The translations under genes and the position numbers were made by a program. A DNA stretch of 64,000 nt from positions 29,877 to 93,876 of the forward strand of contig PBTA01000030.1 of NCBI GenBank assembly GCA_002726395.1, in the 5' to 3' direction. The notes under the pieces are model-generated. The model was given only the letters and a program-made list of their open reading frames with translations, had not been told where the DNA came from and did not search any database. This DNA is from Methanobacteriota archaeon (GTDB lineage Archaea; Thermoplasmatota; Poseidoniia; Poseidoniales; Poseidoniaceae). Positions 9,798 to 64,000 of the stretch are shown piece after piece. Every line of letters begins with the position of its first letter. The first letter of the stretch is position 1.

Positions 9798-9812
9798 TCG
9801 TGAGGTGAGGGC

Positions 9813-10985
9813 TTGTCAACAAAACAATCAGTATTGGATAAATGGTTCCTTAGGCAGGATATTATCAATCAATTACTTGAATCAGGCGAGGAATCAGAAG
9901 ATGCGCTAAAGTTCGCTGAACGAATTATGCCAGTAGTTGAAGCAGAGGAATCCGAATACCAATCACTGGATGACCCATTTGACAGGTCGGTAGCCTTAGT
10001 ATTGTCATTGGTTAAAGACCAGGAACTAAACCCCTGGGACATAGATTTGTCCACTTTCTTGAAAGTATTTACTAAACGGGTTAGATCTGAATCCGATAAA
10101 CTGAATTTACCTGCATGTGGGCGTTTGATTAGGATGGCTTGGGAAGTTTTGAATCAACAAGCAATGGTGCTATTTGATAGAGTACAAAACATGGACCAAG
10201 AAGAGGATTGGGAGGATGAAATTGATTTTGGATGGGAGTCGGATTATGATGACCAGGATTATCTGTTTACTACTTCAATTCTAGAAGGGGATGTAGAACA
10301 ATTACTTCCATCATTGTTTGACGAAAGAATACGTCGAGACGAAGGTAGGCCAGTGACTTTAGGTGAACTTTTATCTGCCTTCAAAGATGCTGCAGAGGAC
10401 GCAGAAGAATTAAAAATTCGAGAAGAAAACAGGATTGCACATCAAGCAGAATTAGGTGACTATCTGAACAATGTTGGTAGTAGGATGCATAATGAAGATT
10501 TGGAAGGTGACATCTATAGATGCTGGTCAGCGCTTAGAAAGGCTTGTCAAAAATCGGGTTCAGCCAAAGTAAAAGTAATTCAGGTAATGGCTGAATTAAA
10601 TGATATCTTATTGGCTGAAAATGGTCATATTGAACAAGGCTATGAAGAAGAATCTAAAGTAGCATCATTCATAGCCAGCCTGTTTTTGACTCATCGAGGA
10701 TTTGCTCTAATAAGTCAAGATGAAGTACCCTATGGTGATATCATGTTAGAAGATTTATGGCCAGGGGTCACAGAGTTCAATGATATCAAGGAACTTATTG
10801 AGGATAAAAAGGAAGTTCAAAGCAACTCTTCAGAGAAAGAAGAGACAGGTTCAGTACAATTTGCCAAACGTCGAGCCGAAAAAATAAGAGCAAAAGAAGA
10901 GAAAGCGAGGAAACAATTCGAGCAAGAGCAAATCCAATCATCAGTGGAAGATGATTTGCCTGAGCATGATTGGTTGGTAGAGTAA
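9813..10985 (+). CDS. scpA: Segregation and condensation protein A (ScpA kleisin), a long acidic form
   Basis: Immediately 3' of smc. N-terminal ScpA-like helix (ALVLSLVKDQELNPWDIDLSTFLKVF) and a C-terminal winged-helix-like region. At 390 aa it is longer than the typical ~250-aa ScpA, owing to acidic inserts. Confidence 0.55.
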   Translation: MSTKQSVLDKWFLRQDIINQLLESGEESEDALKFAERIMPVVEAEESEYQSLDDPFDRSVALVLSLVKDQELNPWDIDLSTFLKVFTKRVRSESDKLNLPACGRLIRMAWEVLNQQAMVLFDRVQNMDQEEDWEDEIDFGWESDYDDQDYLFTTSILEGDVEQLLPSLFDERIRRDEGRPVTLGELLSAFKDAAEDAEELKIREENRIAHQAELGDYLNNVGSRMHNEDLEGDIYRCWSALRKACQKSGSAKVKVIQVMAELNDILLAENGHIEQGYEEESKVASFIASLFLTHRGFALISQDEVPYGDIMLEDLWPGVTEFNDIKELIEDKKEVQSNSSEKEETGSVQFAKRRAEKIRAKEEKARKQFEQEQIQSSVEDDLPEHDWLVE

Positions 10986-10997
10986 GGATTTGATTAC

Positions 10998-11603
10998 ATG
11001 TCAGAAATACAACTAGATACATTACTTGAAGCAACATTATTCGGCGCGGGTAGGTCGATGACAGTATCTGAGTTATGTCAGTCATTAGGCTATGATGAGG
11101 AGGAGATGTTGGATTGTTTATTCTCGCTACGTTCCACGCTCAAAAGGCGTCGCGGAGGAGCTCTACAAATCGCTGAAGTAGGTGACAGGTGGGCCATAGA
11201 AGTTAAGCCGGAAATTGCCACTCATTTGCCTAAGGGTGCTAAGACTGATCTGCCAAAAAAATTACTCAAAGCAGCATCTCTTATTGCTTACCATCAGCCA
11301 ATGTCACAATCAAGACTGGTTGAATTATTAGGTCAGAAGGCATATGATTATGTTAGAGAATTAGCTCAATATGGCATGATTGACCGTCGTAAGGACGGTA
11401 ACACCAGAAGATTAACGACCACCAGAAGATTCTCTGAAGCATTTGGTTGCCCTTATACCGACCGTAAAAAAGTCAAAGCATGGTTTAGAGAACAAGTTCA
11501 AAACACCGGTATTCTGGACGAATTAGAAACCAATGATGTGCTAAAAAGTGAAACTGAATATCAAGGGACTGTTCAAGGAACGTTACAATTTGAGGAAGAG
11601 TGA
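10998..11603 (+). CDS. scpB: Segregation and condensation protein B (ScpB)
   Basis: ScpB-like N-terminus (LEATLFGAGRSMTVSELCQSLG). About 200 aa with tandem winged-helix character. Position 3' of scpA. Confidence 0.6.
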   Translation: MSEIQLDTLLEATLFGAGRSMTVSELCQSLGYDEEEMLDCLFSLRSTLKRRRGGALQIAEVGDRWAIEVKPEIATHLPKGAKTDLPKKLLKAASLIAYHQPMSQSRLVELLGQKAYDYVRELAQYGMIDRRKDGNTRRLTTTRRFSEAFGCPYTDRKKVKAWFREQVQNTGILDELETNDVLKSETEYQGTVQGTLQFEEE

Positions 11604-12944: not shown

Positions 12945-13108
12945 TGGGTTGTATGGATGTCAGTTTAACGGGTTTAACGCATTCATTAACGCGTTAATTA
13001 TATGTTAATTATACGTTAATTGGAGAAAATAATCTCACTGAATAAATCGATTGACGCATAATAACGGGTTTAATTGGTGCTAATTATGGTGAAATATCAA
13101 ATACCCTC
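12945..13108. promoter_or_regulatory. AT-rich divergent intergenic region with short direct repeats and a palindrome, lying between hmgA and the ATPase operon
   Basis: Direct repeats seen in sequence: ACGGGTTTAA(T/C) at about 12967 and 13064; GTTAATTATA(T/C) in tandem at about 12992 and 13004; GTTAATTGG at about 13015 and 13069. Palindrome AACGCGTT at about 12987. Confidence 0.4.
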
Positions 13109-18481: not shown

Positions 18482-19726
18482 TCAGAATTGTTTTTTCACC
18501 AACATTTCTAATCTCTTAGCAATGTCACTGGGTAAGAAATGCGGCATTGAAAGATGGGTAGTTCTTCCTCTTCCACCGGTAACTGTAGATATTCTGGTGA
18601 CGATTAATTGTCGCTTCTCGAGTTCTTTGAGATACTTCCATAATGTGGTGTGGCTCTTCATTTTTTCATCATATTCTTCACAAACTACGGCGTATAGGTT
18701 TTCTACATCTCCAGTAGTCATAGAACTCTCTTTTCTAAGTCTTCGACAAATTGCTAAAAGAACCAACATTGCGTGGGGTTGAAGATTTTCCAACGCATCA
18801 ATTTCGCTAACAATATCAACTGAAAGTTCTTTGTCTTTTGAGTGTACATCATCGGCACTAATTTCCCTTAGTGTGTGATCATCTTGTCTTATTTCACAAG
18901 CCTCTGCTGCGGCTTTTAGTAACTCGATTGCCAATCTAGCATCGCCTATTGGAGCAGATTTTTGTGCTATAAGTCTAATTATGTCATCTGAGCATGAGCC
19001 ATTTGCCAAAGATAAATCAGCTCTCTGTTTACTAATTTTATACAACTCATCTTCATTATATGACGGGATTTGAATCAAGTTGGTTTTCCCCATTCTTGAT
19101 AGGACTGCAGTCTCTAAAACATCGATAATTTGTTCCTGGCTAATTAGAATTAGTGACAGAGTACCTTTGCCTTCTTGGTCTTCATCAATTCGGAGTAGTT
19201 GATACAGAATATCGTCTCCCGATTTTCTCAACATGTGGTCAACTTCATCTAATATCACGATTAAATGAGCAGAATTTCGCCTGGTTAGCTTTCTTAAACT
19301 GAGTAGTAACTCTCCCATAGATAGCCCTCTATCTGGGTGTCCTGGGTCTATTGCGTGTAGTATTCGTTGAACAACCCTAGTGCTAGTTGATGCGTTACGG
19401 CAGTTAACATGAGCTATGCGAATCTCTCTTCTATTGGCTAAATGTCGTTTAAGGTCACGGCAGAAGGTTTTGACAAGAACAGTTTTACCACTCCCTACTG
19501 GACCTGATATGACTGCTCTGCAACTAGTCTCTGGCTTGTCTATAGAAGAAAATCTAGCAGCCAACTTATTTTGAAAATCTTCTCTTCCAACAATGTTTTC
19601 TGGTACATAATCAAAATCTAAAGGTCCTGGGTCTTTGATTACGTAACCGGCACCAATTCGGTCAAGATAGCCACTCATAACATCGGAAGGGTTACGCCAA
19701 CCGTTATTGAATATACGCTTTAACAA
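18482..19726 (-). CDS. cdc6: Orc1/Cdc6 replication initiator
   Basis: AAA+ Walker A VISGPVGSGKTVLV. Walker B ILDEVD. C-terminal winged helix. About 414 aa. Confidence 0.85.
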   Translation of the reverse strand: MLKRIFNNGWRNPSDVMSGYLDRIGAGYVIKDPGPLDFDYVPENIVGREDFQNKLAARFSSIDKPETSCRAVISGPVGSGKTVLVKTFCRDLKRHLANRREIRIAHVNCRNASTSTRVVQRILHAIDPGHPDRGLSMGELLLSLRKLTRRNSAHLIVILDEVDHMLRKSGDDILYQLLRIDEDQEGKGTLSLILISQEQIIDVLETAVLSRMGKTNLIQIPSYNEDELYKISKQRADLSLANGSCSDDIIRLIAQKSAPIGDARLAIELLKAAAEACEIRQDDHTLREISADDVHSKDKELSVDIVSEIDALENLQPHAMLVLLAICRRLRKESSMTTGDVENLYAVVCEEYDEKMKSHTTLWKYLKELEKRQLIVTRISTVTGGRGRTTHLSMPHFLPSDIAKRLEMLVKKQF

Positions 19727-36000: not shown

Positions 36001-39000
36001 ATGTCGGAAAAACGCTCTACAAAATCACTGTTTTTAATTGGCCTGATGGTAATTTCTTTTTTGACCCCAGTTTTGTCCTCGGCATCGGCTGATGAACAGT
36101 TAGACGGCCAGGATGATGAGTATGATGCACAAGGAATAATTATCGGCGATTTAACAGAGTTTGATCCTGCCGACGGTCGAGAGTATTTGTTGATTGAAGA
36201 AGACACTGCGGTCGTATCAGCATATGGTTTCATGAAGCAGGCATGGATTGACTCAGGAAGGCCTGGAGTTGATGATATGAAATATGAACCAGTAACTCAC
36301 GGCAGAGCAAGTGGTAGAGTCTGTACGCCCCACTTAACTGGAGACGCCCTTACAGTTCCAATTTCAGGTGGTTCTATTGATGCATATGTCGCAAAGACTA
36401 CCAACACTGTGGCGTTTATTGTTCAAACAGGCAGAACTCTATCATCAACTGTTTTAAATAATCTAGCATCGTCTTGGGATTCAACAATTTACCCAACAAT
36501 GACCACTTACTACGGGAAAGATTACGGTGACGGACGTGGACTTGCTGCTCCAGATATAGACAACAATTGTCAAGTGCAAATCATAGTATACGATATTGAT
36601 GGGGCATTCAATACTGGTGGTTACTTTGCTCCATCATTTGCTAGTGTAAGGGAGTCTGTTTTCATAGACTTTGCCGACATTACCCTTAACTGGGGCAAAT
36701 CAATAATTGCTCACGAATTGCAGCATTTACTGCACAATGCCCAGGATCCTTATGAAAATTTATGGATTGATGAAGGCAATGCAGATGTAGCAATATATCT
36801 CTGCTTTGGCCCTGACTCAACACTGGTTAGTCATCTAAATCAATGGACAGAAGCTCCTGAATTGTCCATAAGATGGTGGAATCAAAGATTTGCAGACTAC
36901 GGTGCAGGATTTATTTTCACAATGTATTTGGCCGATCATTTAGGTGGCGGCCCAGCAGTAAGACAATTGGTTCAAGACTCGGCTACTGGCGGGGTAAGTG
37001 TTCAAAATCTAGCATTATCGCCTCCTTCGGGCTCCTCTGGTGCGATTGGCCGGACCATGGGAGAGATTTTTGCTAATTTCTCAGTCGCAGCATTTTTGGA
37101 TTCAGAACAAGGGATTTACGGGTTTTCGAATCTAGACTTAACTCCAGTTTGTAGTTCGAATTCTTTCTGTCGTGCCCAGCCAACTGAAGTAAATAGTGAT
37201 TGGAGCACTCCATGGTCATCAACTGGTAACAGCGTTGAAGGATGGGGACTTAGAGGATTTAAATTCACTCCTGGCTCATCATCTCCAGCACCTTTGACAA
37301 TTAGGTTAACTGCGGATGTAAGCCAATTTGACGGCGTTATTGTTAGCAAATCAATGGTTGATGGTCTACTTTCAGTAACAGACTTGACATTCCAAAATAA
37401 TGTTGCTACTGCTCTTGTTCCTGGTTTTGGTAATTTGACAGATGAAGTTTGGGCAATAACTTGGTATGCAAGCACAGTAGCAGATTGCGATTACACTTCT
37501 TGCGGCTCATCTTACCCCCAAGGAACGGTTGATGTTGAAGCTGCAAGAATAACTTCCCCTGCTAGTTTGACTATCAATAACTCAGTTTTATCAGATAGAG
37601 ATGGCGATAGTAATGATGACACTGTTCAAGTAAACTTTGATGTTTTCTCTAACGCCTTTTTCGAAGATTTAGATGTTGATATCAGCATTTTAGATTCTAG
37701 TGGTAACATAATTGACGAGAAGACTTCTAGAATTTCAGCCGGTGGTGGTGTTAACTCAAACAGCAATATTTGGTTTACTGCGCCAAATGATGGTCAGTAT
37801 ACGGTCAAGTTTGACATGTACGATATGATTGGAACTCTTGTTGACAGTGTTTCAACCCAAGCTTGGGCTTTATCCAATATGCGTCCAACTGCAAATGCAT
37901 CAGTTTCTACTAATGTGTCTCAAACATGGGAAAACATACAATTTGTCGGTGACGGATTTGATGCTTGGGGTTTGTCCCTAGACAATAATACCTTGCCATA
38001 CCTAGACCAACCGGTTGCTTATGCATGGGACTTTGGTGATTCAGTCACTTCTAATTTGAAATCCCCAACACGTTCTTATCAAAATGCTGGATTGTATAAC
38101 GCAACGTTGCGAATAATGGATCAAGGGAATACCTGGTCTGAAACAGATGTTGTTCAAATAAATGTTACAGATGATTCAGTGCCAATTCCAGTTATTACAG
38201 TAAATAACGTTGTCATTACAGACAATATTAGTATCTTGACAGAGCAAACAATTCAATTTTCTGCTTCTCGGACTGTGGACAATGTTCCTTTGAGTAATTT
38301 AGATTTCCAATGGGAGTGGGGTGATGGAACATTAGATTCTGACACAGGTAAATATCTAGTCCAGCATAAATGGGATGCAATCAATCAAGAAGTAGAAGAG
38401 TACAATTTGACTCTGTCGGTATTTGATGGCTTCAATACTGGTACTGTTTCGATTAGTGTATTTGTCAATAATAGAGTTCCATATCAAATCTTTTCAGATA
38501 ATTTGACCACTTACACATACACTTCAGTCCCAATGCCAGATGTATTTGCTGATGACGATGGAACAATTGTTTCATATGATTGGGTATTTCCAGAAGGTGT
38601 TAACCTAAATGGTGGGATTACCGATCAAGGAGACGACTTTTTACAGACCACTTCAAGTGATACTTATCCTAACCCCTCTTGGGATTCTCCTGGAATAAAA
38701 ATCGTAACTCTGACAGTTACCGATGATGACGGTAGCCAATCTACTACACAATTATTTGTTAATGTGTTAAATCAAATTCCTGTAGCAGACTTCATTGTAA
38801 GGATTACAGAGAACGGCGAGACTTCGGCTATAGACTTTAGAGCCGAGGATGGTTTTGTTGATGTCCCATACACATTTGATGGAATCTCTTCTTATGACAT
38901 AGATTCAACTACTGGCGATTCTGCTGGATTAATTTATAATTGGTCATTTGGTAGTGATGAATTCAGTGAAAATGCCATTACTACATACACCTTCACCGAA

Positions 39001-40212
39001 CCTGGAACCCACGAAGTCTCACTATTTGTGACGGATGAAAACGGTGCGGATAGCACAGTTAAGAAAATCATTGTTAGGGTTCAAAACCCACTGCCAATAA
39101 TTTCCGTTCAAATATTGGATGGATGGGTCGATGGGCAACAAATGGACAAAAATACCCCTCGTCCAGAAGGTTTCTTACCTGATTCTTGGACTCATACCTT
39201 TGATGAAGCAGAAAATACCTATACAGCCCCTAATTTGATGCTATATTTTGACTCAGAGGGTACAAGAGATGGGGATCGGAGGTATGAGGGCAAATACTCT
39301 CCTGTAAACGATGAAAATAATGATCAATGGAATGGTATTGTAGAATATACTTGGGATTTCGGTGATGCAACACCACTATCAAAACAAGCTTCGCCATGGC
39401 ATTATTATGATACGCCGGGGGCCTACACTGTTACGCTAACTGTCAGGGATTCATACGGGACTGGAGACGTAAGTAAGCAAGTCTTTACTATAGTCGTTGA
39501 TGAGCCGCCGGAAATCAAAAAGATCGAAATTCCGGATGATATAATCATTGAGGAAAAAGCCTATTTAAGCGCAAATATTACTGATTTTGAAGTCGCTAAC
39601 AATATCCTATTATATCGTGACTTGAATATCGAAGATGGGTCATTATTCGACCGAGATGAATCGCTAAATCCCGATCTTGTAGTAAGATGGGATATTGACA
39701 TTTACAAAGACTCAAACAAAAATGGGATATTGGAAGATGATTATATTACTCCTCAACCTAACGCAGTCAATTATCGAATTGAGAGTTTGTGGAATGAATC
39801 GGGCAGTTACACTATTATTGTGGAAGCATGTGATAGTTTAGGGATATGTACCTCTATGGAAGAAACCTTGCAAGTTTCACCTAAACCAGATCCTGAACCA
39901 TCATTATCAGATTTTGAACTAGAAGATTGGACTTCATGGGTTAAAGATGCAGGCTCTGATCTTGCAACCTACTTTGCATTAATTGCCGTTGCCTTGATTC
40001 TAGGCTGGTTAGTATTGAGGGAATCATCAGAGTTAGAAGATGAGGCTAAACAAGCTGCAGAAACATACACCGACGTGGAGCACGTTGAAGTTCAAGGTGG
40101 CTTGCTTGGTATGGACCAACATACTCCTCCACCGGCCCCGGGGATATTATCTAAAGAAGAGCGTAGAAGTGAAGATAGTGGTTACGTAAGGCCATTAAGA
40201 AGAAGAATTTGA
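36001..40212 (+). CDS. Large surface protein: N-terminal MA-clan zinc metallopeptidase domain followed by multiple PKD/Ig-like domains, a C-terminal TM anchor and a charged tail
   Basis: Signal peptide. HELQHLLHNAQDPYENLWIDEGNAD (HExxH plus downstream WxxEGxA gluzincin pattern). Repeated roughly 90-aa modules with W.FGDG-type PKD signatures (AWDFGDSVTS, EWGDGTLD, NWSFGSDEF, TWDFGDATP). TM helix ALIAVALILGWLVL near the C-terminus. Confidence 0.6.
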   Translation: MSEKRSTKSLFLIGLMVISFLTPVLSSASADEQLDGQDDEYDAQGIIIGDLTEFDPADGREYLLIEEDTAVVSAYGFMKQAWIDSGRPGVDDMKYEPVTHGRASGRVCTPHLTGDALTVPISGGSIDAYVAKTTNTVAFIVQTGRTLSSTVLNNLASSWDSTIYPTMTTYYGKDYGDGRGLAAPDIDNNCQVQIIVYDIDGAFNTGGYFAPSFASVRESVFIDFADITLNWGKSIIAHELQHLLHNAQDPYENLWIDEGNADVAIYLCFGPDSTLVSHLNQWTEAPELSIRWWNQRFADYGAGFIFTMYLADHLGGGPAVRQLVQDSATGGVSVQNLALSPPSGSSGAIGRTMGEIFANFSVAAFLDSEQGIYGFSNLDLTPVCSSNSFCRAQPTEVNSDWSTPWSSTGNSVEGWGLRGFKFTPGSSSPAPLTIRLTADVSQFDGVIVSKSMVDGLLSVTDLTFQNNVATALVPGFGNLTDEVWAITWYASTVADCDYTSCGSSYPQGTVDVEAARITSPASLTINNSVLSDRDGDSNDDTVQVNFDVFSNAFFEDLDVDISILDSSGNIIDEKTSRISAGGGVNSNSNIWFTAPNDGQYTVKFDMYDMIGTLVDSVSTQAWALSNMRPTANASVSTNVSQTWENIQFVGDGFDAWGLSLDNNTLPYLDQPVAYAWDFGDSVTSNLKSPTRSYQNAGLYNATLRIMDQGNTWSETDVVQINVTDDSVPIPVITVNNVVITDNISILTEQTIQFSASRTVDNVPLSNLDFQWEWGDGTLDSDTGKYLVQHKWDAINQEVEEYNLTLSVFDGFNTGTVSISVFVNNRVPYQIFSDNLTTYTYTSVPMPDVFADDDGTIVSYDWVFPEGVNLNGGITDQGDDFLQTTSSDTYPNPSWDSPGIKIVTLTVTDDDGSQSTTQLFVNVLNQIPVADFIVRITENGETSAIDFRAEDGFVDVPYTFDGISSYDIDSTTGDSAGLIYNWSFGSDEFSENAITTYTFTEPGTHEVSLFVTDENGADSTVKKIIVRVQNPLPIISVQILDGWVDGQQMDKNTPRPEGFLPDSWTHTFDEAENTYTAPNLMLYFDSEGTRDGDRRYEGKYSPVNDENNDQWNGIVEYTWDFGDATPLSKQASPWHYYDTPGAYTVTLTVRDSYGTGDVSKQVFTIVVDEPPEIKKIEIPDDIIIEEKAYLSANITDFEVANNILLYRDLNIEDGSLFDRDESLNPDLVVRWDIDIYKDSNKNGILEDDYITPQPNAVNYRIESLWNESGSYTIIVEACDSLGICTSMEETLQVSPKPDPEPSLSDFELEDWTSWVKDAGSDLATYFALIAVALILGWLVLRESSELEDEAKQAAETYTDVEHVEVQGGLLGMDQHTPPPAPGILSKEERRSEDSGYVRPLRRRI

Positions 40213-42427: not shown

Positions 42428-47113
<4,686 letters not shown>

Positions 47114-51570: not shown

Positions 51571-54144
51571 ATGGCAGGCCAAGTTGTGTCGATAGATGAC
51601 TTGGTTTTACCCGACAAGGCTAAGAAATTCTTCATAGAACACTGGGGAATTACCAAACTACATCCGCCTCAAGCACAATCTATGGAGGCAGTCTTCTCCA
51701 ATCGTAGTGCGTTAATTGCAATACCCACTGCAAGCGGTAAGTCACTTATTGCATATATCGCGATTTTGCGTAAGTTACTACTCGAGGACATCGGTTCTAA
51801 AGCCATCTACATTGTACCACTCAAAGCCTTAGCTTCTGAGAAGTTTGAAGATTTTAAGGCGCTTGGTAAGGCATTGAATCTAACTATTGGTTTAGGTATA
51901 GGTGATTCATCATCCGAAGCAAAAAGGATTGATGAGTGTGACATACTAGTATGTACTTCTGAAAAATTAGATTCAATAATTAGAAACCGTTCCCAGTCGA
52001 TGTCTAATGTCTCAATTATTGTATCAGATGAATTTCATCTGTTAAATGACGCATCTAGGGGTCCAACTTTGGAAATTAATTTAACCAAATTACGTTATCT
52101 AAGACCTAATGCTCAGATTATCGCTCTATCTGCCACAGTGGGTAATTGCGAACAACTTTCAAATTGGCTCGATGCTGAATTGATAATTTCAAATTGGCGG
52201 CCAGTTGCTTTAGAATATAGTACATTTCATGATTTACATTTGGAGCCTAGAATGGTGCAGTCTGCTAATTTATCAGCTAAAGCAGATTTACTTAATCCAC
52301 CAAGAGATCTCGAAGGTCCAAAATCACAACCTACTTGGGTTGTATTGAATGATACAATAGACGCTTCTGGCCAATTACTAATCTTTGTCGGGACTAGGAA
52401 AAGTGCTGAATCTGAGGCGGTAAAATTAGCCAAAAGAGTGTCAAAAAAACTTTCCACACAAGACGTTGATAGAATTGCTAAATTAGATGATGTGGCAACT
52501 TCTATAGAGGGCGGACGTCAATCTGCAATGGGTGAGAAATTAGTGCAATGTATTCGAGGAGGAACAGCCTTTCATCATGCGGGATTGACTCATAATCAAA
52601 GAAAAGTAGTTGAAAATGCCTTCAAAGAAGGAATTTTGACTTGTTTATCTGCAACACCTACCTTGGCTGCGGGGGTAAATCTGCCAGCAAGAAGAGTATT
52701 AGTTAGAGACATCAAAAGGTGGGATGACGGAATGAGTCGACCTTTGCCGGTTATGGAGGTTAGGCAAATGCTAGGTAGAGCCGGTAGGCCAAAATATGAC
52801 GATTTTGGCGAGGCTTGGGTTCTATGCAAAGGCACTGACGGCTGGGAGGTTGCAGATATGGTTAGTGAGAAGTACTTTTTTGGAGATGTGGAGCCGATAA
52901 ATTCCAAGTTAGCAGGCGAGCCTGCTTTGCGCACCCACATTCTTTCAATTATATCGACAGGCGGAATTCAGCATAGGGGAGAAATAGGAGATTTCTTTGC
53001 CGCAACATTTCTCGGATTTTCGACTCCAAAACATATCTTGAAAGAAAAGATTGATCAAACTCTTACATGGTTAACTGAGGAACGTTTCATTAGAAAAGTA
53101 GGAGTTGACAAATCTTATTCTGAGGCACGTGCAGATAAATTCGTAGATAGTGATGACTGGGATGACAACGTTCCTGCTTGGGCAATGGTTGCAAAATCCA
53201 CTCAAGGTGTCGAGATGAATGGTGAAAATAATTCCAATACGAACAACAAAATAACAGCACATAATAAACCAGTATTAGGGTTTAATCTCGCATCTGAATT
53301 GAGCTCTATTGGTGCATGGCATTCAAATGATTTGGATGAATTTTCAGGTATGAAATATGAGGCTACGTTAATGGGCGAGAGGATAACCCAACTGTACCTT
53401 GACCCATTGTCAGCATCTATCATTAGAACAGGACTTAGAAGAGCGATAAGAAGAATTGTCAAGGACATTGCCCCAGTAACCAATTTTGGACTTTTACACC
53501 TAGCAACATCAACTCCAGATTTCACTTCATTGTGGGCGAAAAACTCAGAGATGGAGCCAAATTCAAAGTTATGGATAAAAACTAACTCTGTCGAAGATGA
53601 ATTATTATCGGATTCCAGTTATGATGAAATGCTACTTTCCAATGTTAAATCTGCATGGATGGTTGAAATGTGGTGTGAAGAATCAAACATCCGTTCTATA
53701 GAGAAAGATTTAGACGTTAACCCTGGTGATATTAACTATCGAGTTGATATTATGGCATGGCTGATACATTCTTCACGAGAAATAATTTTGACGGATGATG
53801 TATTCTCTGATGAACACATGCCGCAGATTGCTGAACTGATCAAACAATTAGACGTATTGCGTTTGCGGGTAAGACACGGTTGCAAAGAAGATTTACTTAC
53901 CTTGGTAAATATTCCAAATGTCGGTCGATATAGGGCACGTGAGTTATCTAAACTTGATATAAGAACTCCTCACCATGTGGCAAATATGACCAAAAAGAAA
54001 AGGGATCAGATTTTAAAAATACGTGGTTGGGGTCCTCAGTTATTGGATAAAATAATGCTTGAGGTAGCTAAAGTGATAGAACCTTCCAAGCAGCAAAAAC
54101 GAAAGGTTCGTCTTGATGACATACCCTTAGATGATGAAATTTGA
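51571..54144 (+). CDS. hel308: Hel308/Ski2-like ATP-dependent DNA helicase
   Basis: Motif I AIPTASGKS, DEAH-type motif II SDEFHLL, motif VI GRAGRP. C-terminal winged-helix, ratchet and HhH domains. About 857 aa, typical for Hel308. Confidence 0.85.
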   Translation: MAGQVVSIDDLVLPDKAKKFFIEHWGITKLHPPQAQSMEAVFSNRSALIAIPTASGKSLIAYIAILRKLLLEDIGSKAIYIVPLKALASEKFEDFKALGKALNLTIGLGIGDSSSEAKRIDECDILVCTSEKLDSIIRNRSQSMSNVSIIVSDEFHLLNDASRGPTLEINLTKLRYLRPNAQIIALSATVGNCEQLSNWLDAELIISNWRPVALEYSTFHDLHLEPRMVQSANLSAKADLLNPPRDLEGPKSQPTWVVLNDTIDASGQLLIFVGTRKSAESEAVKLAKRVSKKLSTQDVDRIAKLDDVATSIEGGRQSAMGEKLVQCIRGGTAFHHAGLTHNQRKVVENAFKEGILTCLSATPTLAAGVNLPARRVLVRDIKRWDDGMSRPLPVMEVRQMLGRAGRPKYDDFGEAWVLCKGTDGWEVADMVSEKYFFGDVEPINSKLAGEPALRTHILSIISTGGIQHRGEIGDFFAATFLGFSTPKHILKEKIDQTLTWLTEERFIRKVGVDKSYSEARADKFVDSDDWDDNVPAWAMVAKSTQGVEMNGENNSNTNNKITAHNKPVLGFNLASELSSIGAWHSNDLDEFSGMKYEATLMGERITQLYLDPLSASIIRTGLRRAIRRIVKDIAPVTNFGLLHLATSTPDFTSLWAKNSEMEPNSKLWIKTNSVEDELLSDSSYDEMLLSNVKSAWMVEMWCEESNIRSIEKDLDVNPGDINYRVDIMAWLIHSSREIILTDDVFSDEHMPQIAELIKQLDVLRLRVRHGCKEDLLTLVNIPNVGRYRARELSKLDIRTPHHVANMTKKKRDQILKIRGWGPQLLDKIMLEVAKVIEPSKQQKRKVRLDDIPLDDEI

Positions 54145-57761: not shown

Positions 57762-59456
57762 GTGTTTCATATGTCTGATGACAAATACGAATCGCACGTT
57801 AAGGCAGTTTTATCAGAATGCCCTGATGCGAATGTTGATGATGTCAAAGCTTCATTTAAGAAATATGAAGAAGAATTCTATATTCCTCCACAAGATGCAC
57901 TTAGATCAATCGTTAGAAGATTCCAAGGTGAACAACAAACTACATCACCGAATAGGGCTAATAACCAACCAAGGAATACTAAGAAAGTAAAGTCGCTATC
58001 TGAACTTTCAGGGACCGACAAGGATGTTGAGATAGAAGTAGAAATCATCTCTCATAATGTTAGAGAGCAAACAATTAGAGGTGAGGAGAAGAAAATCGCC
58101 TTCGGATTACTTGAAGATAATCCGTGGGATGATGGCTCAGAAAGAGTTCGTTGGGAATACAAGGATTGGGGGCCAAACTCGAACATAACACCTGGTTCTG
58201 TAGTCCGAATTGAAGGTGCATCAGTCAATGAGTATCAAGGAAAAATGTCGCTAAACATAAATCAAGGGGCAAGAATCGCGGTACTGAGAGAGGGAACAAG
58301 ACCTGTTAATGCTCCTGGTGAGCCAATAGATATCAGTAATATTCCAAAAGACGGCTATATTTGTATTGTTGGCAGAGTACTTTCATGCAGGGAAGACCAA
58401 ATTCACCGTAAAGATGGTTCTGGATCTATCGATGTGGTAAGGGGTAGAATTGCCGATGAATCTGGCACCATTGGTTTTCTTTCATGGGAACCATTCGAAC
58501 ATGAGATTGGTAGTTTGGTAAAAATAGATGGGGCACAGGTTAAGACCTTTAGAGATACTCCAGAATTGAATTTTGGTAGAACAACTAAGATCGAAACCTT
58601 TCACGACGCCAATTTTGCAGATACAGAAAAACTAAACAGCCAAAATATGAAAACAGTATCTCAACTTACCGATGGTTCAAGAGATGTAGAAATTATTGTA
58701 CAAATTACTGAATGGCAGAAGCGTTCTTTTACTAAAGATGGAGTCGAAAAGCATCTTTGGTCAGGGCAAATAGCAGATTTGACCGGAAGATGCCGTATGA
58801 GTGCCTGGGAAGAATTGCCTATAGACGAAAATAAATTACCGTTAACCGTTAAACTGTCCGGCGTTAGGGTAAGAGCTTGGCAGGGCATTCCTGACATAAC
58901 GGTTGATAGTGCAAAGCAAGTAGAATTTCTTGACAAAACTCCTTGGGATGAATCAATCAATCTAGAGGACCATGTTGTCGAAGTTGACTTGACTGAATTA
59001 ACTACTTCGTCTAGTAGAGTTGGAATATCTACCGAAGGAACAATAGTTAGTGTGCGAGATGATTCTGGAATTATAATGCGTTGTTTAGGATGTCGTCGAG
59101 TGCTTCGCGATGGCGAATGTTCATCTTGTGATTCGACAGAATCTCAACAAGATGTTAGATTGAGGTTAGTAATAGATAACGGTGAAAACACCGCTTCTTT
59201 ATTGATAAATAAGGCAGCATCAATCAAACTAACAGGTTTAGATGAAGATAAGATGGCTAAAAAAATAGCATCCGATGGGAAAATGGAATTTGTCCAATCA
59301 CTAAGGGATATGATGCTTGGAAGAATAATAAAAGCCAACGGTCGTACAATAGTTGACGAACAAGGCGCAATGATTCTTGCTGACCATGTTGAATTAAATG
59401 ACGGTGATGCAGGCCTTTTAGCCACTGAAGTAAGGTCTAAATGGGGGGTTAACTAA
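57762..59456 (+). CDS. rpa: Replication protein A (RPA) large subunit: ssDNA-binding protein with multiple OB folds and a C4 zinc finger
   Basis: Tandem OB-fold-like modules. CLGCRRVLRDGECSSCDS zinc ribbon typical of euryarchaeal RPA41/RPA1. Confidence 0.7.
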   Translation: MFHMSDDKYESHVKAVLSECPDANVDDVKASFKKYEEEFYIPPQDALRSIVRRFQGEQQTTSPNRANNQPRNTKKVKSLSELSGTDKDVEIEVEIISHNVREQTIRGEEKKIAFGLLEDNPWDDGSERVRWEYKDWGPNSNITPGSVVRIEGASVNEYQGKMSLNINQGARIAVLREGTRPVNAPGEPIDISNIPKDGYICIVGRVLSCREDQIHRKDGSGSIDVVRGRIADESGTIGFLSWEPFEHEIGSLVKIDGAQVKTFRDTPELNFGRTTKIETFHDANFADTEKLNSQNMKTVSQLTDGSRDVEIIVQITEWQKRSFTKDGVEKHLWSGQIADLTGRCRMSAWEELPIDENKLPLTVKLSGVRVRAWQGIPDITVDSAKQVEFLDKTPWDESINLEDHVVEVDLTELTTSSSRVGISTEGTIVSVRDDSGIIMRCLGCRRVLRDGECSSCDSTESQQDVRLRLVIDNGENTASLLINKAASIKLTGLDEDKMAKKIASDGKMEFVQSLRDMMLGRIIKANGRTIVDEQGAMILADHVELNDGDAGLLATEVRSKWGVN

Positions 59457-60379
59457 TGCAATCAACAGGGCGCGTAAAGCGACAATCTGCGGTACACATA
59501 TTTGCTTCGGAATATGGTGAATCTACCTTAAGCGAGAAAGGATCTGGCGAATTTGATCCATCATTTGTAATAACAAAGTTAGGTTCGAGGATTAATCGAG
59601 TAATAGTTGCAGGTTTATTAGAACGTATTGAAGGCAGAGATGTTTCAAACGGTTCGGTAATTTATCAAGGTCAGTTAAGGGATCCATCTGGAGTTAACTA
59701 TTTTTCAGTCGGAGATTATGTTTCTGATTCAGTAAAAGAACTAACAATACAATTGACCGAAAAATTAGAAACAGGTGAACCAATATTGCTGATGATGGTC
59801 GCTAAAACACGATTATATCAAACCGACGAAGGTGCTGTCTATACCTCGCTTAGGCCGGAAGAAATGTGTGTTATCGATTCGGCTAGATATGCTAATTGGC
59901 TTGCTAAGACATCAGATCATATGATGACACGAATGTCAAATTATATGACTAGTTTAGATTTTGATGCTAACATTGAATCAATGTCTAAATCAGATTTTAC
60001 CGAACATCAACAACTCGGCTTAGTTGCTGCTAGGAATCATTACGGAGAATTAGATCTAGAACATTATCGATTGAATGTGATGCAAGCACTGGACATTGCT
60101 GAAGGGAAATTAGAATCTGCTTCTAAACCAGCACCTCAACGATTAGAATCAACTATGGATGAAGATAATTCGTCAGAGGAAAAAGCAAGTGATGTTGAGC
60201 AGGCAATAACCGATATCATCAATACTCTTGATCAAGGAGACGGAGTGGATTTTGAGACAATTATAGTAAATGCAGAAGCTAGAGGCTTCCAGCGCTCCAT
60301 AACCGAAGAAAAAATCGAGGAAATGTCAGATAGTGGTATTGTTCATGAGCCAGCATTTGGTTGGTTTAGATTAGTTTAG
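59456..60379 (+). CDS. RPA-associated OB-fold protein (RPA32/Rpa2-like)
   Basis: 1-nt stop/start overlap with rpa. OB-fold-like RVIVAGLLERIEGRDVSNGSVIYQGQLRDPSG. Acidic C-terminus. Confidence 0.45.
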   Translation: MQSTGRVKRQSAVHIFASEYGESTLSEKGSGEFDPSFVITKLGSRINRVIVAGLLERIEGRDVSNGSVIYQGQLRDPSGVNYFSVGDYVSDSVKELTIQLTEKLETGEPILLMMVAKTRLYQTDEGAVYTSLRPEEMCVIDSARYANWLAKTSDHMMTRMSNYMTSLDFDANIESMSKSDFTEHQQLGLVAARNHYGELDLEHYRLNVMQALDIAEGKLESASKPAPQRLESTMDEDNSSEEKASDVEQAITDIINTLDQGDGVDFETIIVNAEARGFQRSITEEKIEEMSDSGIVHEPAFGWFRLV

Positions 60380-60414
60380 ATTAGCAATAACTCCCAACAC
60401 ATTCAAGTTCTTAG

Positions 60415-60795
60415 TTGACTGTGCTCGGTATAGGTGGAGACGTGTCAGGAATGGATTTTTTTATCCGCCCCGCAACGGGAACAAGTAGCTCAGACTGGGT
60501 TAGGATACCAAATGCCGATATTAAGGTGAAGTCTGCTAGAAGAATAACTCGAACAATTGTGAGGGGTCAAGAAGGCGACAATCTTCATGATGAAGGCTCT
60601 GAGTCTACTCTTTATACTGTTTCAGGGGAAATGAAAATAGATGAGTATAAGAAAATATTATCCATGTACAAATCTGGGCAACCATGCATTCATGACCCAT
60701 TTGAAGAAAGGGATGTGAAAGTGGTATTTGCATCAATGGAGTATGATGGTTCTAATGAATCATTCATTTTTGAATTCATAGAAGATATTATTTGA
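60415..60795 (+). CDS. Hypothetical small protein at the head of the FlaJ/FlaI-like cluster
   Basis: The listed ORF starts at TTG. An internal ATG at 60451 gives a 114-aa protein (MDFFIRPATG...). No motif recognised. Confidence 0.3.
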   Translation: MTVLGIGGDVSGMDFFIRPATGTSSSDWVRIPNADIKVKSARRITRTIVRGQEGDNLHDEGSESTLYTVSGEMKIDEYKKILSMYKSGQPCIHDPFEERDVKVVFASMEYDGSNESFIFEFIEDII

Positions 60796-60796
60796 G

Positions 60797-61387
60797 GTGT
60801 TTTTTTTGAGAAAACTCGATGAGAAGAAAGAGATTCTCTATGTTATTAGGACCTTAGATGTATTGATGTCTTCAGGTGTTGGTCTGGAGGCTGCCTTACA
60901 CACGATTGGCAAAGGTGGCTATGGAATTATTTCCAAGGACTTCTCTTCATTAATGACAAAATTAAGTGCAGGTAAATCAAGAGGATTAGAATTTGAAGTT
61001 AAAGCATTGATGAACAAAGCCGAATCGGATGGCTACCGAAGATTACTGAATACTATGTATACTAATTTGACTCAAAATACCGATTTGATAGATACTCTTA
61101 GAAAACAGGGTAAGAGAATGGAAGAAGATCGTAGTGAATCGGTAAATAAGTACATCGAAGAACTCGGCGGAGTACCTGAAACCTTGCTTTCGATTGGTAT
61201 GATAGGCCCGATAATTCTAGCAATTGTCGGACTTGTTCCTCAAATACTTGGAGATGGAGCTGAAGCAATAATCGGTACCATTGACCAAGGATTGATTAAT
61301 TCTATAGTAAATGGTGGACTGATGTTTACCTTGGTAGGAATGATGCTGATTGGTCTAAAGGCACATACAAAAGATCCGGGGTTGTGA
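60797..61387 (+). CDS. T2SF-domain membrane protein (half of a FlaJ/TadB-TadC-like platform)
   Basis: Cytoplasmic segment LDVLMSSGVGLEAALHTIGKGGYGIISKDFSSLMTKLSAGKS fits the GspF/T2SF domain pattern (L..G.sl.eAL.........l...l..v...l..G). Two C-terminal TM helices. Confidence 0.5.
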   Translation: MFFLRKLDEKKEILYVIRTLDVLMSSGVGLEAALHTIGKGGYGIISKDFSSLMTKLSAGKSRGLEFEVKALMNKAESDGYRRLLNTMYTNLTQNTDLIDTLRKQGKRMEEDRSESVNKYIEELGGVPETLLSIGMIGPIILAIVGLVPQILGDGAEAIIGTIDQGLINSIVNGGLMFTLVGMMLIGLKAHTKDPGL

Positions 61388-61388
61388 A

Positions 61389-62120
61389 ATGATATTTGAT
61401 TTCCTTGAGGCGTTTAATGAAAACTCATTAGTGCTCTATTTATTTGTTATAGGCATTGCTTGCGCAGCAGGTGGTATTCCTCCAATGATTGAGAGAAATA
61501 GGCGGCGAGGTATTGAAAATCAATTACCTGGCTTACTTGAATCACTTTCTGATGCAGTTGGTGCAGGAAGAGGCTTACAAGAAGCAATGTTAGAACAAGG
61601 TAGGAATACTCCAGGTATTCTGGGAAAACTCTTAAGTGAAACACTTGAAAGTAGCCATGCATCTTCATTTGATGCAGCACTTTCTGCCTTTGCCTCAAAA
61701 ACTCGCTCATCTCAAGTACAGAGGGTTGTTGTTTTAATTGATACAGCAATGGAGCAAGATGCTCCTTTGCAAAGTATTCTCTCAGATTTGGCTATGGATT
61801 ATGAAAGATTAAATGATTTAATGAATAAAAGAGAAACAGAATTAGCTGGCAGAGGCATTCTTATCATCCTATTCGTCTGTATTGGCCTACCAGTACTAAT
61901 CGCCTTTATCGTTGGTTTATTTGCTCCTGCAGCATCAGGATTTCAAATTGCTAACTTCAATTCGACATTCTCAACCTTTTTCGCTTTGGCTTCAGCAACA
62001 GGTGCCATGGTTTCGGGAAGGATGATGGGTCGCGCAAGGGACATGCTTTGGTGGATACCGCTATGGATGTCAACTTCTATGTTACTCTATCTTGGAGCAG
62101 TGAAAATGATTGGAGGATGA
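61389..62120 (+). CDS. T2SF-domain membrane protein (second half of a FlaJ/TadB-TadC-like platform)
   Basis: TM1, then LLESLSDAVGAGRGLQEAMLEQGRNTPGILGKLL (T2SF-like), then three further TM helices. A 1-nt gap from the upstream gene. Confidence 0.5.
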   Translation: MIFDFLEAFNENSLVLYLFVIGIACAAGGIPPMIERNRRRGIENQLPGLLESLSDAVGAGRGLQEAMLEQGRNTPGILGKLLSETLESSHASSFDAALSAFASKTRSSQVQRVVVLIDTAMEQDAPLQSILSDLAMDYERLNDLMNKRETELAGRGILIILFVCIGLPVLIAFIVGLFAPAASGFQIANFNSTFSTFFALASATGAMVSGRMMGRARDMLWWIPLWMSTSMLLYLGAVKMIGG

Positions 62121-62123
62121 AAA

Positions 62124-63362
62124 ATGTCTGAAAAAATAATAGAACAATACGGCAGAGTAACGATTTATACTGAACCAAACCACCCTTCACCAATCTATCA
62201 TGTTGATGGCTCGATTGATCCAAACCCATACGGAGATTTAGCAGTTTTACTAGAAGATGACAATTTGGAAGAGGTAATGTATAATGGTGGCACACAATGT
62301 GTCAAAATTGCCCATAGAGAGCACGGTATGTGTAGAACTAATGTTTGGATAGACGATGACAGTGGAATTCAGATAGCTAAAAACATCGCATCTTTTACCA
62401 ATGTCCCATTAGGAGACGGACCGGGATTAGTGCCAATATTTGATGGACGTTTACCAGACGGATCAAGAGTAAACGGTACTATTCCGCCAATATCACCAGA
62501 CGGGCCGACGTTGACAATTAGAAAGTTTAGAGAAGATCCTCTTACAATGCTAGACCTAGTTAAATTTGGTACAGTAAACTCACGGCTTGCCGCAATGATG
62601 TGGGTCTGGATTGAAGGCCTTGATAGTCGGCCAGCCAATTTTGTAATCGCTGGAGGTACCGGTTCTGGTAAAACTACGACCCTAAATTGCTTAGGTATGT
62701 ATATACCATGGGATAGAAGGTTGCTGACTGTCGAAGACACAGCTGAATTACAAGTTTACCATGACCACTGGTTACGTATGGAAACCAGGAGGGAAAGACC
62801 AGACGGGACTCCTGAAGTGGACATGAATGACTGTCTAAAATCAAGTCTCAGAATGAGGCCAGACAGAATAATTGTGGGAGAGGTAAGAGGGCCAGAAGCT
62901 GCAACTCTACTTACTGCTATGAATACCGGTCACGATGGTTCCTTTGGTTCTCTGCACGCTAATACAGCCCAAGAAACAGTAACTAGAATGATTAATCCTC
63001 CAATGTTGGTTCCGCCAATTATGCTAACGGGATTAGACTTAATCATTATCCAAGCCAGACTTCATGTCAATGGGAAGACTGCAAGGAAAATAACTGAAGT
63101 AGCAGAAATTGCTGGAATGGAAGGAACTAAACCAAGGCTGAACATTATTTGGAAATACAATCCAGCGAATGATCGAATTGAGGAAACAGGAATACCATCT
63201 AAGATGCGAGAAACGATTTGTCAAGCAGCAGGAGTTACGCCAGACGTGTTTGAGAAGCATGTATCTCAAAGGCAACAGATTCTAGAGGATTTGATAAATA
63301 GAGATATTAGAGATATTCAAACAGTAACTCAAGTTATACAAAACTTCTACGCAACTAGGTAA
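62124..63362 (+). CDS. FlaI/VirB11/CpaF-family type II/IV secretion ATPase
   Basis: RLPDGSRVNGTIPPISPDGPTLTIRKF, Walker A VIAGGTGSGKTTTLN, Asp box TVEDTAEL, Walker B and His box LRMRPDRIIVGEVRGPEA...NTGHDGSFGSLHAN. 412 aa. Confidence 0.8.
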   Translation: MSEKIIEQYGRVTIYTEPNHPSPIYHVDGSIDPNPYGDLAVLLEDDNLEEVMYNGGTQCVKIAHREHGMCRTNVWIDDDSGIQIAKNIASFTNVPLGDGPGLVPIFDGRLPDGSRVNGTIPPISPDGPTLTIRKFREDPLTMLDLVKFGTVNSRLAAMMWVWIEGLDSRPANFVIAGGTGSGKTTTLNCLGMYIPWDRRLLTVEDTAELQVYHDHWLRMETRRERPDGTPEVDMNDCLKSSLRMRPDRIIVGEVRGPEAATLLTAMNTGHDGSFGSLHANTAQETVTRMINPPMLVPPIMLTGLDLIIIQARLHVNGKTARKITEVAEIAGMEGTKPRLNIIWKYNPANDRIEETGIPSKMRETICQAAGVTPDVFEKHVSQRQQILEDLINRDIRDIQTVTQVIQNFYATR

Positions 63363-63364
63363 TC

Positions 63365-64000
63365 TTAACCTCTTAGCCGTGCTAATACGTCATCTATGTG
63401 GTCAATCTTTTCTTTGGCAGATTTAACCCTCTCACCTGCATTGGTTAAGTCGCTATCACCTGATATAATCTCTTCAAGTTTACTCTCTGATTTTGGCTTG
63501 AAGTCTTGGGCTAGGGCTTTTAGTTGAACTATTATTGAATCGACTTCACTTTCAGAAACAATTACTCCTGGAGCAATTCTTGGAATCTCACTTGGAGATA
63601 TGAAACCTAACTCAGCGCCTATTATTCCAGAACAAGCCAAAACTTTAGGTCTTAAATCTGGAGTGTTCACATCGTAACCTCTAGATTCAAGGAATCTAAT
63701 GATCAGTGATTGTTGAGAATCATTAAACTCTCCTTCCGAGGTTTCCATCACAGTTTCAACAAGTTGTTCAAATCCAACTATATTTTTCTCCAATCTTTCA
63801 ATAGTTCTTCTTTCTTCTGAGCTGATATGGATTGAACCGTGGTGTAAAATCTTGAGGACACGATTTCTTCTGGCAATATTAGGGTCTTGTAAACCTTCTA
63901 CCTCCGAAAGATCCACATGCAGGTCAAATAGTGCATGTAGCCTACCAGAAATACTTGGAATCCTTAAGTCAAGGTCCATCGACTTTGCAATTTCCTCGAA
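63365..64000 (-). CDS. Hypothetical protein. The reading frame stays open to the window edge (…FEEIAKS before the listed Met at 63979), so it may be 5'-truncated.
   Basis: The minus-strand frame has no stop between 63979 and 64000. No motif recognised. Confidence 0.3.
   Translation of the reverse strand, partial: FEEIAKSMDLDLRIPSISGRLHALFDLHVDLSEVEGLQDPNIARRNRVLKILHHGSIHISSEERRTIERLEKNIVGFEQLVETVMETSEGEFNDSQQSLIIRFLESRGYDVNTPDLRPKVLACSGIIGAELGFISPSEIPRIAPGVIVSESEVDSIIVQLKALAQDFKPKSESKLEEIISGDSDLTNAGERVKSAKEKIDHIDDVLARLRG

Follow-up and report, generated by a model that had tools for sequence, protein, structure and literature searches.

The last part of a 64,000-nucleotide stretch of contig PBTA01000030.1, from the Poseidoniaceae archaeon assembly GCA_002726395.1 (hereafter the window), carries a four-gene cluster that encodes a small soluble protein, two short membrane proteins, and a 412-residue ATPase. 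The cluster lies directly 3' of genes for the large subunit of the single-stranded DNA (ssDNA) binding protein RPA and for a 307-residue RPA32-like subunit. We consider it probable, though by no means certain, that the four genes encode the cytoplasmic and membrane core of a euryarchaeal type IV pilus assembly machine resembling the Tad, Epd, and CdiP systems, and that the RPA pair stands apart from them as a housekeeping unit. The Poseidoniales, whose family Poseidoniaceae is also called Marine Group IIa, dominate the archaea of the surface ocean and outnumber all other planktonic archaea, and no member of the order has been cultured. Their attachment to particles has so far been argued only from an archaellum operon; the locus described here would be a second, order-wide filament-assembly operon, which goes unmentioned in Rinke 2018, Tully 2019, and Damashek 2021. 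A metatranscriptome paper on these archaea (PMC9723583) likewise mentions neither pili, nor secretion, nor RPA.

The last of the four genes (62124..63362, + strand) encodes a secretion or pilus-assembly ATPase of the CpaF/TadA/GspE2 type. Its T2SSE domain (PF00437) scores 141 bits in Pfam (E 5e-41; gathering score 24.9), and the catalytic motifs are all intact: the Walker A motif (GGTGSGKT), the Asp box (EDTAE), the Walker B motif (IIVGE), and the His box (HDGSFGSLHA). By score and by all four motifs the protein belongs to the T2SSE superfamily. Among solved structures, its closest match is Archaeoglobus fulgidus GspE2 (afGspE2; 2oap, 231 bits), followed by Caulobacter CpaF (217 bits) and Sulfolobus FlaI (153 bits). 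The FlaI equivalog model NF058587 is the best NCBIfam match by score, though at 253.7 bits it falls far below the cut-off of 550 and aligns only over model positions 147-518. The TadA model TIGR03819 also falls short (208.9 bits, cut-off 373), and matches to VirB11/TrbB models are weaker and below their cut-offs. Matches to two PHROGs of unknown function are likewise weaker.

The two membrane proteins each contain a single T2SSF domain (PF00482; cut-off 25.2). The domain scores 41.7 bits in the first, a 196-residue open reading frame that we call platform half a (TadB/EpdJ/CdiPFa-like), and 33.3 bits in the second, a 243-residue open reading frame that we call platform half b (TadC/EpdK/CdiPFb-like; 61389..62120, + strand). 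Half a has a cytoplasmic T2SSF domain followed by two C-terminal transmembrane helices (residues 129-147 and 167-187 of the 196-residue reading frame), while half b has an N-terminal transmembrane helix, the T2SSF domain, and C-terminal transmembrane helices, and aligns with the C-terminal half of the UpsF model (positions 279-454 of 484). With scores above gathering and at least two hydrophobic segments each, both proteins belong to the T2SSF platform family; they are paralogous and 25% identical. Neither has a sequence match in PDB at E values up to 10. These results bear out an initial annotation of the locus, made from the DNA alone, in its calls of a secretion ATPase, of one T2SF domain in each short membrane protein, and of a type IV filament module that is not an archaellum and has its platform divided between two genes. 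Its description of the ATPase as "FlaI/CpaF-type" holds for the kinship with CpaF, but "FlaI-like" is imprecise, given a score of 254 bits against a cut-off of 550 and the closer matches to afGspE2 and CpaF.

Comparison with relatives revised two of the start codons, and with them the layout of the cluster. The first gene, which we call p117, starts at 60442 rather than 60415 (60442..60795, + strand); the start codon is GTG here and ATG in relatives, it is preceded by a ribosome-binding site (AGGTGGAG/AGGGGT), and the product is a soluble, acidic protein of 117 residues beginning MAGMDFF. The corrected start of platform half a is a TTG at 60806 (60806..61387, + strand), which gives a protein of 193 residues (M-RKLDEK...) whose gene begins 10 nucleotides 3' of the p117 stop codon. 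The Shine-Dalgarno sequence of this gene, GAGGTG, overlaps the p117 stop codon, an arrangement kept in approximately 60 distinct loci. We observed that the window has a run of eight T residues between the p117 stop and the platform start (60800-60807), where otherwise near-identical contigs (e.g. L001) have seven; this length difference shifted the apparent longest reading frame and thereby misled the start call for half a based on open reading frames. With the starts corrected, spacers within the cluster measure 10, 1, and 3 nucleotides. From this spacing and these signals, p117, the two platform halves, and the ATPase look like one translationally coupled operon.

The RPA large subunit gene (561 residues; 57771..59456, + strand) probably starts at 57771; its longest reading frame opens with a GTG at 57762, and gene callers on identical contigs take the ATG. 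The RPA32-like gene (59456..60379, + strand) overlaps the RPA stop codon. Between it and p117 lies a gap of 62 nucleotides, which divides the four-gene operon from the RPA/RPA32 pair; RPA is a neighbor of the operon and not a member of it. The tight packing reported initially is real, but the first of the spacers given there as 1-3 nucleotides measures 10, and the distance of 35 base pairs after the RPA-associated gene becomes 62. The reading of the two upstream genes as RPA plus an RPA-associated gene was sound. The large subunit matches the NCBIfam model PRK07218 with an E value of 6e-71, and other replication factor A models as well; in a phmmer search against PDB, residues 220-306 of the 307-residue protein match Pyrococcus abyssi RPA32 (8oej_B/9f26_C; E 4e-4). 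The latter protein also has a weak match to the MCM C-terminal winged helix, and by eye its sequence suggests an OB region followed by a C-terminal winged helix.

The 62-nucleotide gap contains a short motif, CCAACACATTCAAGT (core ACATTSAA; 60394..60408, + strand), approximately 36 nucleotides 5' of the p117 start. In an alignment of 63 distinct Poseidoniaceae RPA32-p117 intergenic sequences it is the best-conserved non-coding block, and a degenerate counterpart, ACCTTCAT, is found at the same distance in a locus from the second Poseidoniales family, the Thalassarchaeaceae. Lying before the ribosome-binding site, it is placed as one would expect of a promoter or operator, and we regard it as a candidate for either in the pilus operon. 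We also considered that CCAACACATTCAAGT might be a general promoter box of this genome, but the full motif occurs once in the window and a test of the promoter element TTCAAR was not significant; we leave it as a locus-specific element.

We next asked how the locus is arranged elsewhere, in a sample of 80 Poseidoniaceae species genomes, 86 Poseidoniaceae loci, one Thalassarchaeaceae contig, and 68 loci from an outgroup clade. Across the 80 Poseidoniaceae genomes, a block of approximately 20 kb is collinear and consists of Cgi121, TldD, PmbA, RPA, RPA32, p117, platform half a, platform half b, the ATPase, a convergent gene for a 607-residue protein, a gene for a 385-residue protein, a polyprenyl synthase gene, and a pilin gene. 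Most, but not all, of these loci also have a gene for a 167-residue protein after the convergent gene. On the Thalassarchaeaceae contig, whose ATPase is 73% identical to that of the window, the block is retained between RPA and polyprenyl synthase, with other genes 5' of RPA. The next ATPase clade, from marine metagenomes and 55% identical, has the same platform-platform-ATPase trio. In the approximately 30 of its 68 loci that are long enough to judge, the trio lies between a gene for a Frag1-family membrane protein and a gene for an AIR-synthase-domain protein, downstream of PPDK, and no RPA, RPA32, or p117 gene stands beside it. Two platform genes adjoining one ATPase gene, the split platform known from euryarchaea, are thus kept in all related loci. 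The co-oriented RPA adjacency pointed out in the initial annotation is kept across both Poseidoniales families but absent from the nearest outgroup clade; absence from related genomes was the refutation that the annotation had set for itself, and outside the order it applies. Because both families have it, the adjacency dates to the ancestor of the order, and because the whole Poseidoniaceae stretch from Cgi121 to the pilin gene is collinear, the junction with RPA is no better conserved than the other junctions. Judged from these gene orders, the adjacency looks like a lineage-specific inherited arrangement and not a link to DNA transport.

The proteins of the operon are also better conserved than their neighbors. 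Taking medians over 67 Poseidoniaceae genomes of other species, identity to the window protein is 91% for the ATPase, a figure bounded from below because loci were picked by ATPase identity. The corresponding medians are 72% for p117, 70% for platform half b, and 69% for platform half a, compared with 72% for TldD, 64% for RPA, 64% for the pilin, 61% for PmbA, and 53% for RPA32. The contrast recurs in the comparison with the Thalassarchaeaceae, in which the ATPase is 73% identical and the other proteins are 32-49% identical, and again inside the outgroup clade. The better conservation of the operon proteins argues that the operon is a functional, selected unit, and these identities indicate that it is under strong purifying selection. 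Two things are new here: the fold predicted for p117, described below, and an unusually slow-evolving ATPase, at approximately 91% identity where RPA stands at approximately 64%.

No pilin is encoded in the window. Pfam scans of all open reading frames of at least 110 residues found no archaellin, FlaF/G/H, or A24 prepilin peptidase there; two scans of the window yielded no class III signal peptide candidate, and there is no small pilin reading frame down to 40 residues. Nor do the next 10 kb downstream, read on identical metagenomic contigs, contain an archaellin, FlaF/G/H, or prepilin peptidase gene. The absence of a pilin and of FlaF/G/H from the window, as first noted, is therefore upheld by the Pfam and class III signal peptide scans. 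The picture of a module lacking a pilin is not, since the downstream check places a PilA-type pilin gene just outside the window, 4.8 kb past the ATPase gene (approximately 4 kb beyond the window end on identical contigs). Its product is a 164-residue Pilin_N protein (PF07790, 34.5 bits), which belongs to a family named "type IV pilin" by NCBI. The protein begins MVTDIYHEDEA-VSPVIATVLLLAITV, with a class III motif at EA-VSPVIATVLLLAITV. Of the 86 Poseidoniaceae loci, 58 have such a gene at a distance of 4.8-7 kb downstream, and it is for the Poseidoniaceae only that class III signal-peptide pilins were found encoded in the genome.

We then compared the module with described systems. Loci with two tadC-like genes are frequent in euryarchaeal clades 1 and 2, and many ATPase/TadC modules have no pilins of their own but depend on stand-alone PilA pilins in trans, as does Haloferax PilB3-C3 (Makarova, Koonin and Albers, PMC4858521). 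In Methanococcus maripaludis, epdJ-epdK-epdL comprises two co-regulated PilC paralogues and an ATPase, encoded apart from the pilin genes, and all are essential for piliation (PMC4371748). In Cuniculiplasma divulgatum (Thermoplasmatales), the platform of the CdiP system is split into genes for an N-terminal and a C-terminal half, cdiPFa and cdiPFb; the CdiP pilins are encoded 500 kb from the machinery, and the pilus has been solved by electron cryomicroscopy (PMC12448462). Precedents (epdJKL, CdiP, PilB3C3) therefore exist for a platform divided in two, for this order of genes, and for pilins not encoded in cis, contrary to the initial annotation, which had suggested that the arrangement was plausibly undescribed. 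The operon itself is undescribed but of an ordinary type, its arrangement being already known from other archaea.

Each of these systems shares some features with the Poseidoniales module and lacks others. CdiP has the split platform beside an ATPase and pilins far from the machinery operon, and is itself an adhesive, non-twitching pilus. It is a Thermoplasmatales system, and NCBI labels some close relatives of the window ATPase and pilin "Thermoplasmatota". It differs in having two ATPase genes rather than one, and no p117-like gene has been reported for it. The likeness drawn here is one of layout, and the CdiP pilus has been seen by electron cryomicroscopy, whereas the Poseidoniales module is known from genes alone. 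Epd shares the platform-platform-ATPase order, the two platform genes, and pilins encoded elsewhere. It differs in being a member of the fast-evolving "clade 1", with a large set of additional components and a dedicated peptidase, EppA (PMC4858521). Experiments have established that it acts in piliation and transformation, and we liken it to the present module by layout. In Haloferax volcanii ("clade 2", PMC4858521), an ATPase/platform module lacking pilins in cis, PilB3-PilC3, serves the stand-alone PilA-type pilins PilA1-6, and the processing site of the Poseidoniaceae pilin with its H-domain EAVSPVIATVLL is of the same kind as the DAVS/RAVS of Haloferax PilA (PMC4371748). Haloferax PilB3 is a longer ATPase than the one described here. 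PilC3 is presumably a single long protein, in contrast with the split platform of the present module. Bacterial Tad/Cpa systems (CpaF/TadA with TadB and TadC) share the pairing of two single-domain T2SSF proteins with one ATPase, and CpaF is the second-best solved match (217 bits). They have the reverse gene order, the ATPase scores 209 bits against a TadA cut-off of 373, and no Flp pilin, TadZ/CpaE, or secretin gene is found in the window. As for conjugative type IV secretion systems and the Ced/Ted systems, the window encodes no VirB4, HerA, or TraG domains, only a VirB11-superfamily ATPase with T2SSF partners.

By homology with these systems, the hexameric ATPase would dock on a heteromeric platform made of the two T2SSF halves, and ATP-driven movements of the platform would lift PilA-type pilins from the membrane into a surface filament, after processing by the cell's class III signal peptidase. 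The pilins would be encoded elsewhere, in the Poseidoniaceae by the one stand-alone gene 4.8 kb downstream. The filament would likely serve adhesion to particles or cells, as do the pili of Haloferax and Cuniculiplasma, and the pilus may also contribute to DNA uptake, as in M. maripaludis, a possibility suggested here only by the gene neighborhood. Under this model the RPA adjacency would have arisen in the Poseidoniales ancestor and persisted as conserved gene order, and the motif in the 62-nucleotide gap would probably give the pilus operon its own promoter or regulator site.

Several observations weigh against this interpretation. The Poseidoniales have no cultured member, and none of them has been seen to bear a pilus. 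A search of the 8-10 kb around the module turned up no pilin motif, either in the Thalassarchaeaceae locus or in the outgroup loci. With none in the window or the 10 kb downstream, a prepilin peptidase is presumed from the archaellum operon reported for the family (PMC6461757). The ATPase lacks approximately 95-130 N-terminal residues that are present in FlaI and afGspE2, and p117 has no counterpart in described pilus systems. The motif CCAACACATTCAAGT is no recognizable TATA box, and TTCAAR was found in 4 of 24 upstream regions in the window where approximately 1.9 were expected, which is not significant; the evidence that the pilus operon is probably transcribed separately from RPA is thus the conservation of the motif.

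The RPA neighbors invite a different reading, raised in the initial annotation, in which the operon encodes a machine for DNA uptake or export: the ATPase and platform would either transport DNA themselves or drive a competence pilus, with RPA/RPA32 coating the incoming or outgoing single strand. Both Poseidoniales families retain the adjacency in this orientation, despite having different genes 5' of RPA, and DNA-metabolism genes are abundant nearby, including Hel308 and, further on, MutS/MutL. In M. maripaludis, natural transformation depends on type IV-like pili, with epdJ, epdK, and epdL among the essential genes, and the same screen also hit an OB-fold protein (PMC10133366). We nonetheless think this reading unlikely. 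The outgroup trio lies between the Frag1 and AIRS-domain genes with neither RPA nor RPA32; the collinearity of the whole 20-kb Poseidoniaceae region leaves the RPA junction with no special signal; and the gap with its conserved motif parts the two units. Moreover, the RPA/RPA32 pair resembles general archaeal replication proteins and bears no mark of a competence-specific paralogue, and the operon contains no nuclease or channel candidate. An RPA adjacency that is confined to the Poseidoniales and unremarkable within a collinear block does not sustain the link between ssDNA binding and translocation drawn initially, and we would set that link aside unless transcript evidence comes to back it.

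The first gene of the operon, p117, had been listed initially as a small hypothetical gene. The gene is present, but a fold can be predicted for its product, which has no Pfam, NCBIfam, or PHROG match and only 66 relatives in an exhaustive profile search of 1.84 billion representative proteins. A confident AlphaFold2 model built from a 22-sequence alignment (predicted local distance difference test score 86, predicted template modeling score 0.76) contains a long beta-hairpin (residues 20-39 and 48-63), a helix (66-78), and further strands. Three structure searches agreed on a phage tail-tube/Hcp-like fold; Foldseek against PDB gave an E value of 2e-5, and Foldseek against BFVD gave the same answer. 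The model thus predicts a fold shared with phage tail tubes, tube initiators, and the Hcp proteins of type VI secretion systems, while p117 is smaller than most tube proteins, has no sequence match to these families, and has no sheath, baseplate, tape measure, or type VI secretion genes nearby. More distant relatives, 100-136 residues long, lie in archaeal gene neighborhoods of other kinds, where they follow PheT, stand close to ribosomal protein S3Ae, or come after pairs of membrane-protein genes; none adjoins RPA, and none precedes a T2SSF gene where the downstream sequence suffices (three of six contigs end within approximately 120 nucleotides). In every Poseidoniales locus p117 is coupled to the platform gene, which argues that it works with the module; that the outgroup trio does without it speaks for an accessory role and against a place in the core. 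We therefore describe p117 as a predicted lineage-specific cytoplasmic accessory with a tail-tube-like fold, possibly ring-forming.

Other assignments of p117 were considered and rejected. It is not a third RPA subunit (RPA14), as its fold is not an OB fold and its relatives elsewhere do not follow RPA genes. PilZ structures rank lower in the search (Z approximately 7), and by eye the conserved RRxTR misfits RxxxR...DxSxxG, which tells against a PilZ-type regulator. A viral origin found no backing in a tblastn search of 50,697 phage records, in IMG/VR, or in PHROGs, none of which returned a relative. In the profile search, three very large proteins (P0302, P0304, and P0305; 745-3359 residues) matched the p117 hairpin region four to six times each (E approximately 1e-4), which may be repeated beta-hairpin modules or noise. 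Upstream of a p117 homologue in the archaeal metagenome-assembled genome GCA_036138275.1 (L165:3633-7960) there is a tandem duplication, each copy encoding a polytopic membrane protein of approximately 450 residues and an acidic protein of approximately 250 residues, with no Pfam match.

The fold of p117 suggests that the operon might instead encode a translocation device that works independently of pilins, in which a p117 ring, the hexameric ATPase, and a minimal platform would move a macromolecule and no pilus would be built. The three structure searches back the fold, the genes for p117 and the platform are closely coupled throughout the Poseidoniales loci, no pilin lies within 8-10 kb of the module in Thalassarchaeaceae or outgroup loci, and the ATPase is both N-terminally trimmed and very highly conserved. 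This seems improbable to us, however, as the outgroup has the three core genes without p117, so the core works in its absence. The p117 relatives elsewhere occur in unrelated contexts; the protein itself is acidic (isoelectric point 4.8) with no signal peptide or transmembrane helix; its ring is only hypothetical; and genuine pili, PilB3C3 and CdiP among them, regularly have modules with no pilin genes close by. One could also combine the p117 fold with the RPA neighbors, and suppose that a p117 ring was recruited to a minimal Tad-like ATPase and platform to form a pilin-independent or competence-type conduit that would work with RPA/RPA32 in taking up or handing over ssDNA. That would make a previously unknown archaeal DNA-transfer machine, and we regard it as rather far-fetched.

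That the operon is part of the archaellum, with FlaI/ArlI and a split FlaJ/ArlJ, is suggested by the JGI cluster name FlaI and by the FlaI model being the best NCBIfam match by score, yet it is very improbable. The match, at 254 bits against the equivalog cut-off of 550, spans model positions 147-518 only and leaves out the N-terminal domain, and solved FlaI is more distant than afGspE2 or CpaF. Neither the 64-kb window nor the 10 kb downstream contains an archaellin, FlaF/G/H, or FlaX/CDE in the same cluster. Furthermore, the Poseidoniaceae have been reported to possess a separate archaellum operon with its own FlaAGHIJ (PMC6336850, PMC6461757), which makes the present locus a second, non-archaellum type IV filament module. 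Finally, a virus or mobile-element remnant, to which the tail-tube fold of p117 and the weaker matches of its ATPase neighbor to VirB11/TrbB models and two PHROGs might point, is almost certainly not what we see here: the position is fixed in a housekeeping block across the whole order, base composition is even across the region, no gene for conjugation, an integrase, or a further virion protein is found in the window, neither GenBank phages nor IMG/VR returned a match for p117, and the T2SSF partners indicate a pilus-type rather than a conjugation-type system.

The locus may also matter for how gene surveys of these archaea are read. The cluster that contains this ATPase is called "flagellar protein FlaI" by JGI and "CpaF family protein" by NCBI, and surveys of "flagellar" genes in Marine Group II based on KEGG Orthology could count the locus; a label from one pipeline could in this way inflate ortholog-based counts of such genes. 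The tail-tube fold predicted for the first gene and the slow evolution of the ATPase are small but concrete leads for structural work.

The + strand of the window ends in a co-oriented gene run that leads from a Hel308-type helicase (51571-54144) through Cgi121, TldD, PmbA, and the RPA pair into the operon. The convergent 607-residue protein follows; the C-terminal part of its gene occupies 63365..64000 on the - strand, by a gene call on contig L001, which is near-identical to the window, and the full gene is L001:11242-13065. Its stop codon lies 2 nucleotides from that of the ATPase gene. The protein has a long coiled coil and no firm family; a weak Pfam match to SAP_new25 near the N-terminus (E 0.013) is below the cut-off, and further SAP-like repeats were seen by eye. 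The gene is kept directly after the ATPase gene in both Poseidoniales families, and its Thalassarchaeaceae counterpart (contig L007) encodes 560 residues.

A few further features of the window deserve mention. It is rich in chromosome-maintenance genes, which include SMC, a 390-residue gene with no Pfam match, and ScpB (5907-11603), Orc1/Cdc6 (18482-19726), and gyrase B and A (42442-47113), so that DNA-related neighbors of the pilus operon are not unusual for the region. One candidate for a surface adhesin is a 1403-residue protein (36001-40212), which has several PKD domains and, at the C-terminus, a hydrophobic segment resembling an anchor. Lastly, the 164-nucleotide divergent intergenic region at 12945-13108, between an HMG-CoA reductase gene and a gene for a 594-residue protein of no assigned role, is densely filled with repeated TTAAC/GTTAA units (AATTAACGTATAATTAACATATAATTAACGCGTTAATGAATGCGTTAAACCCGTTAAAC).

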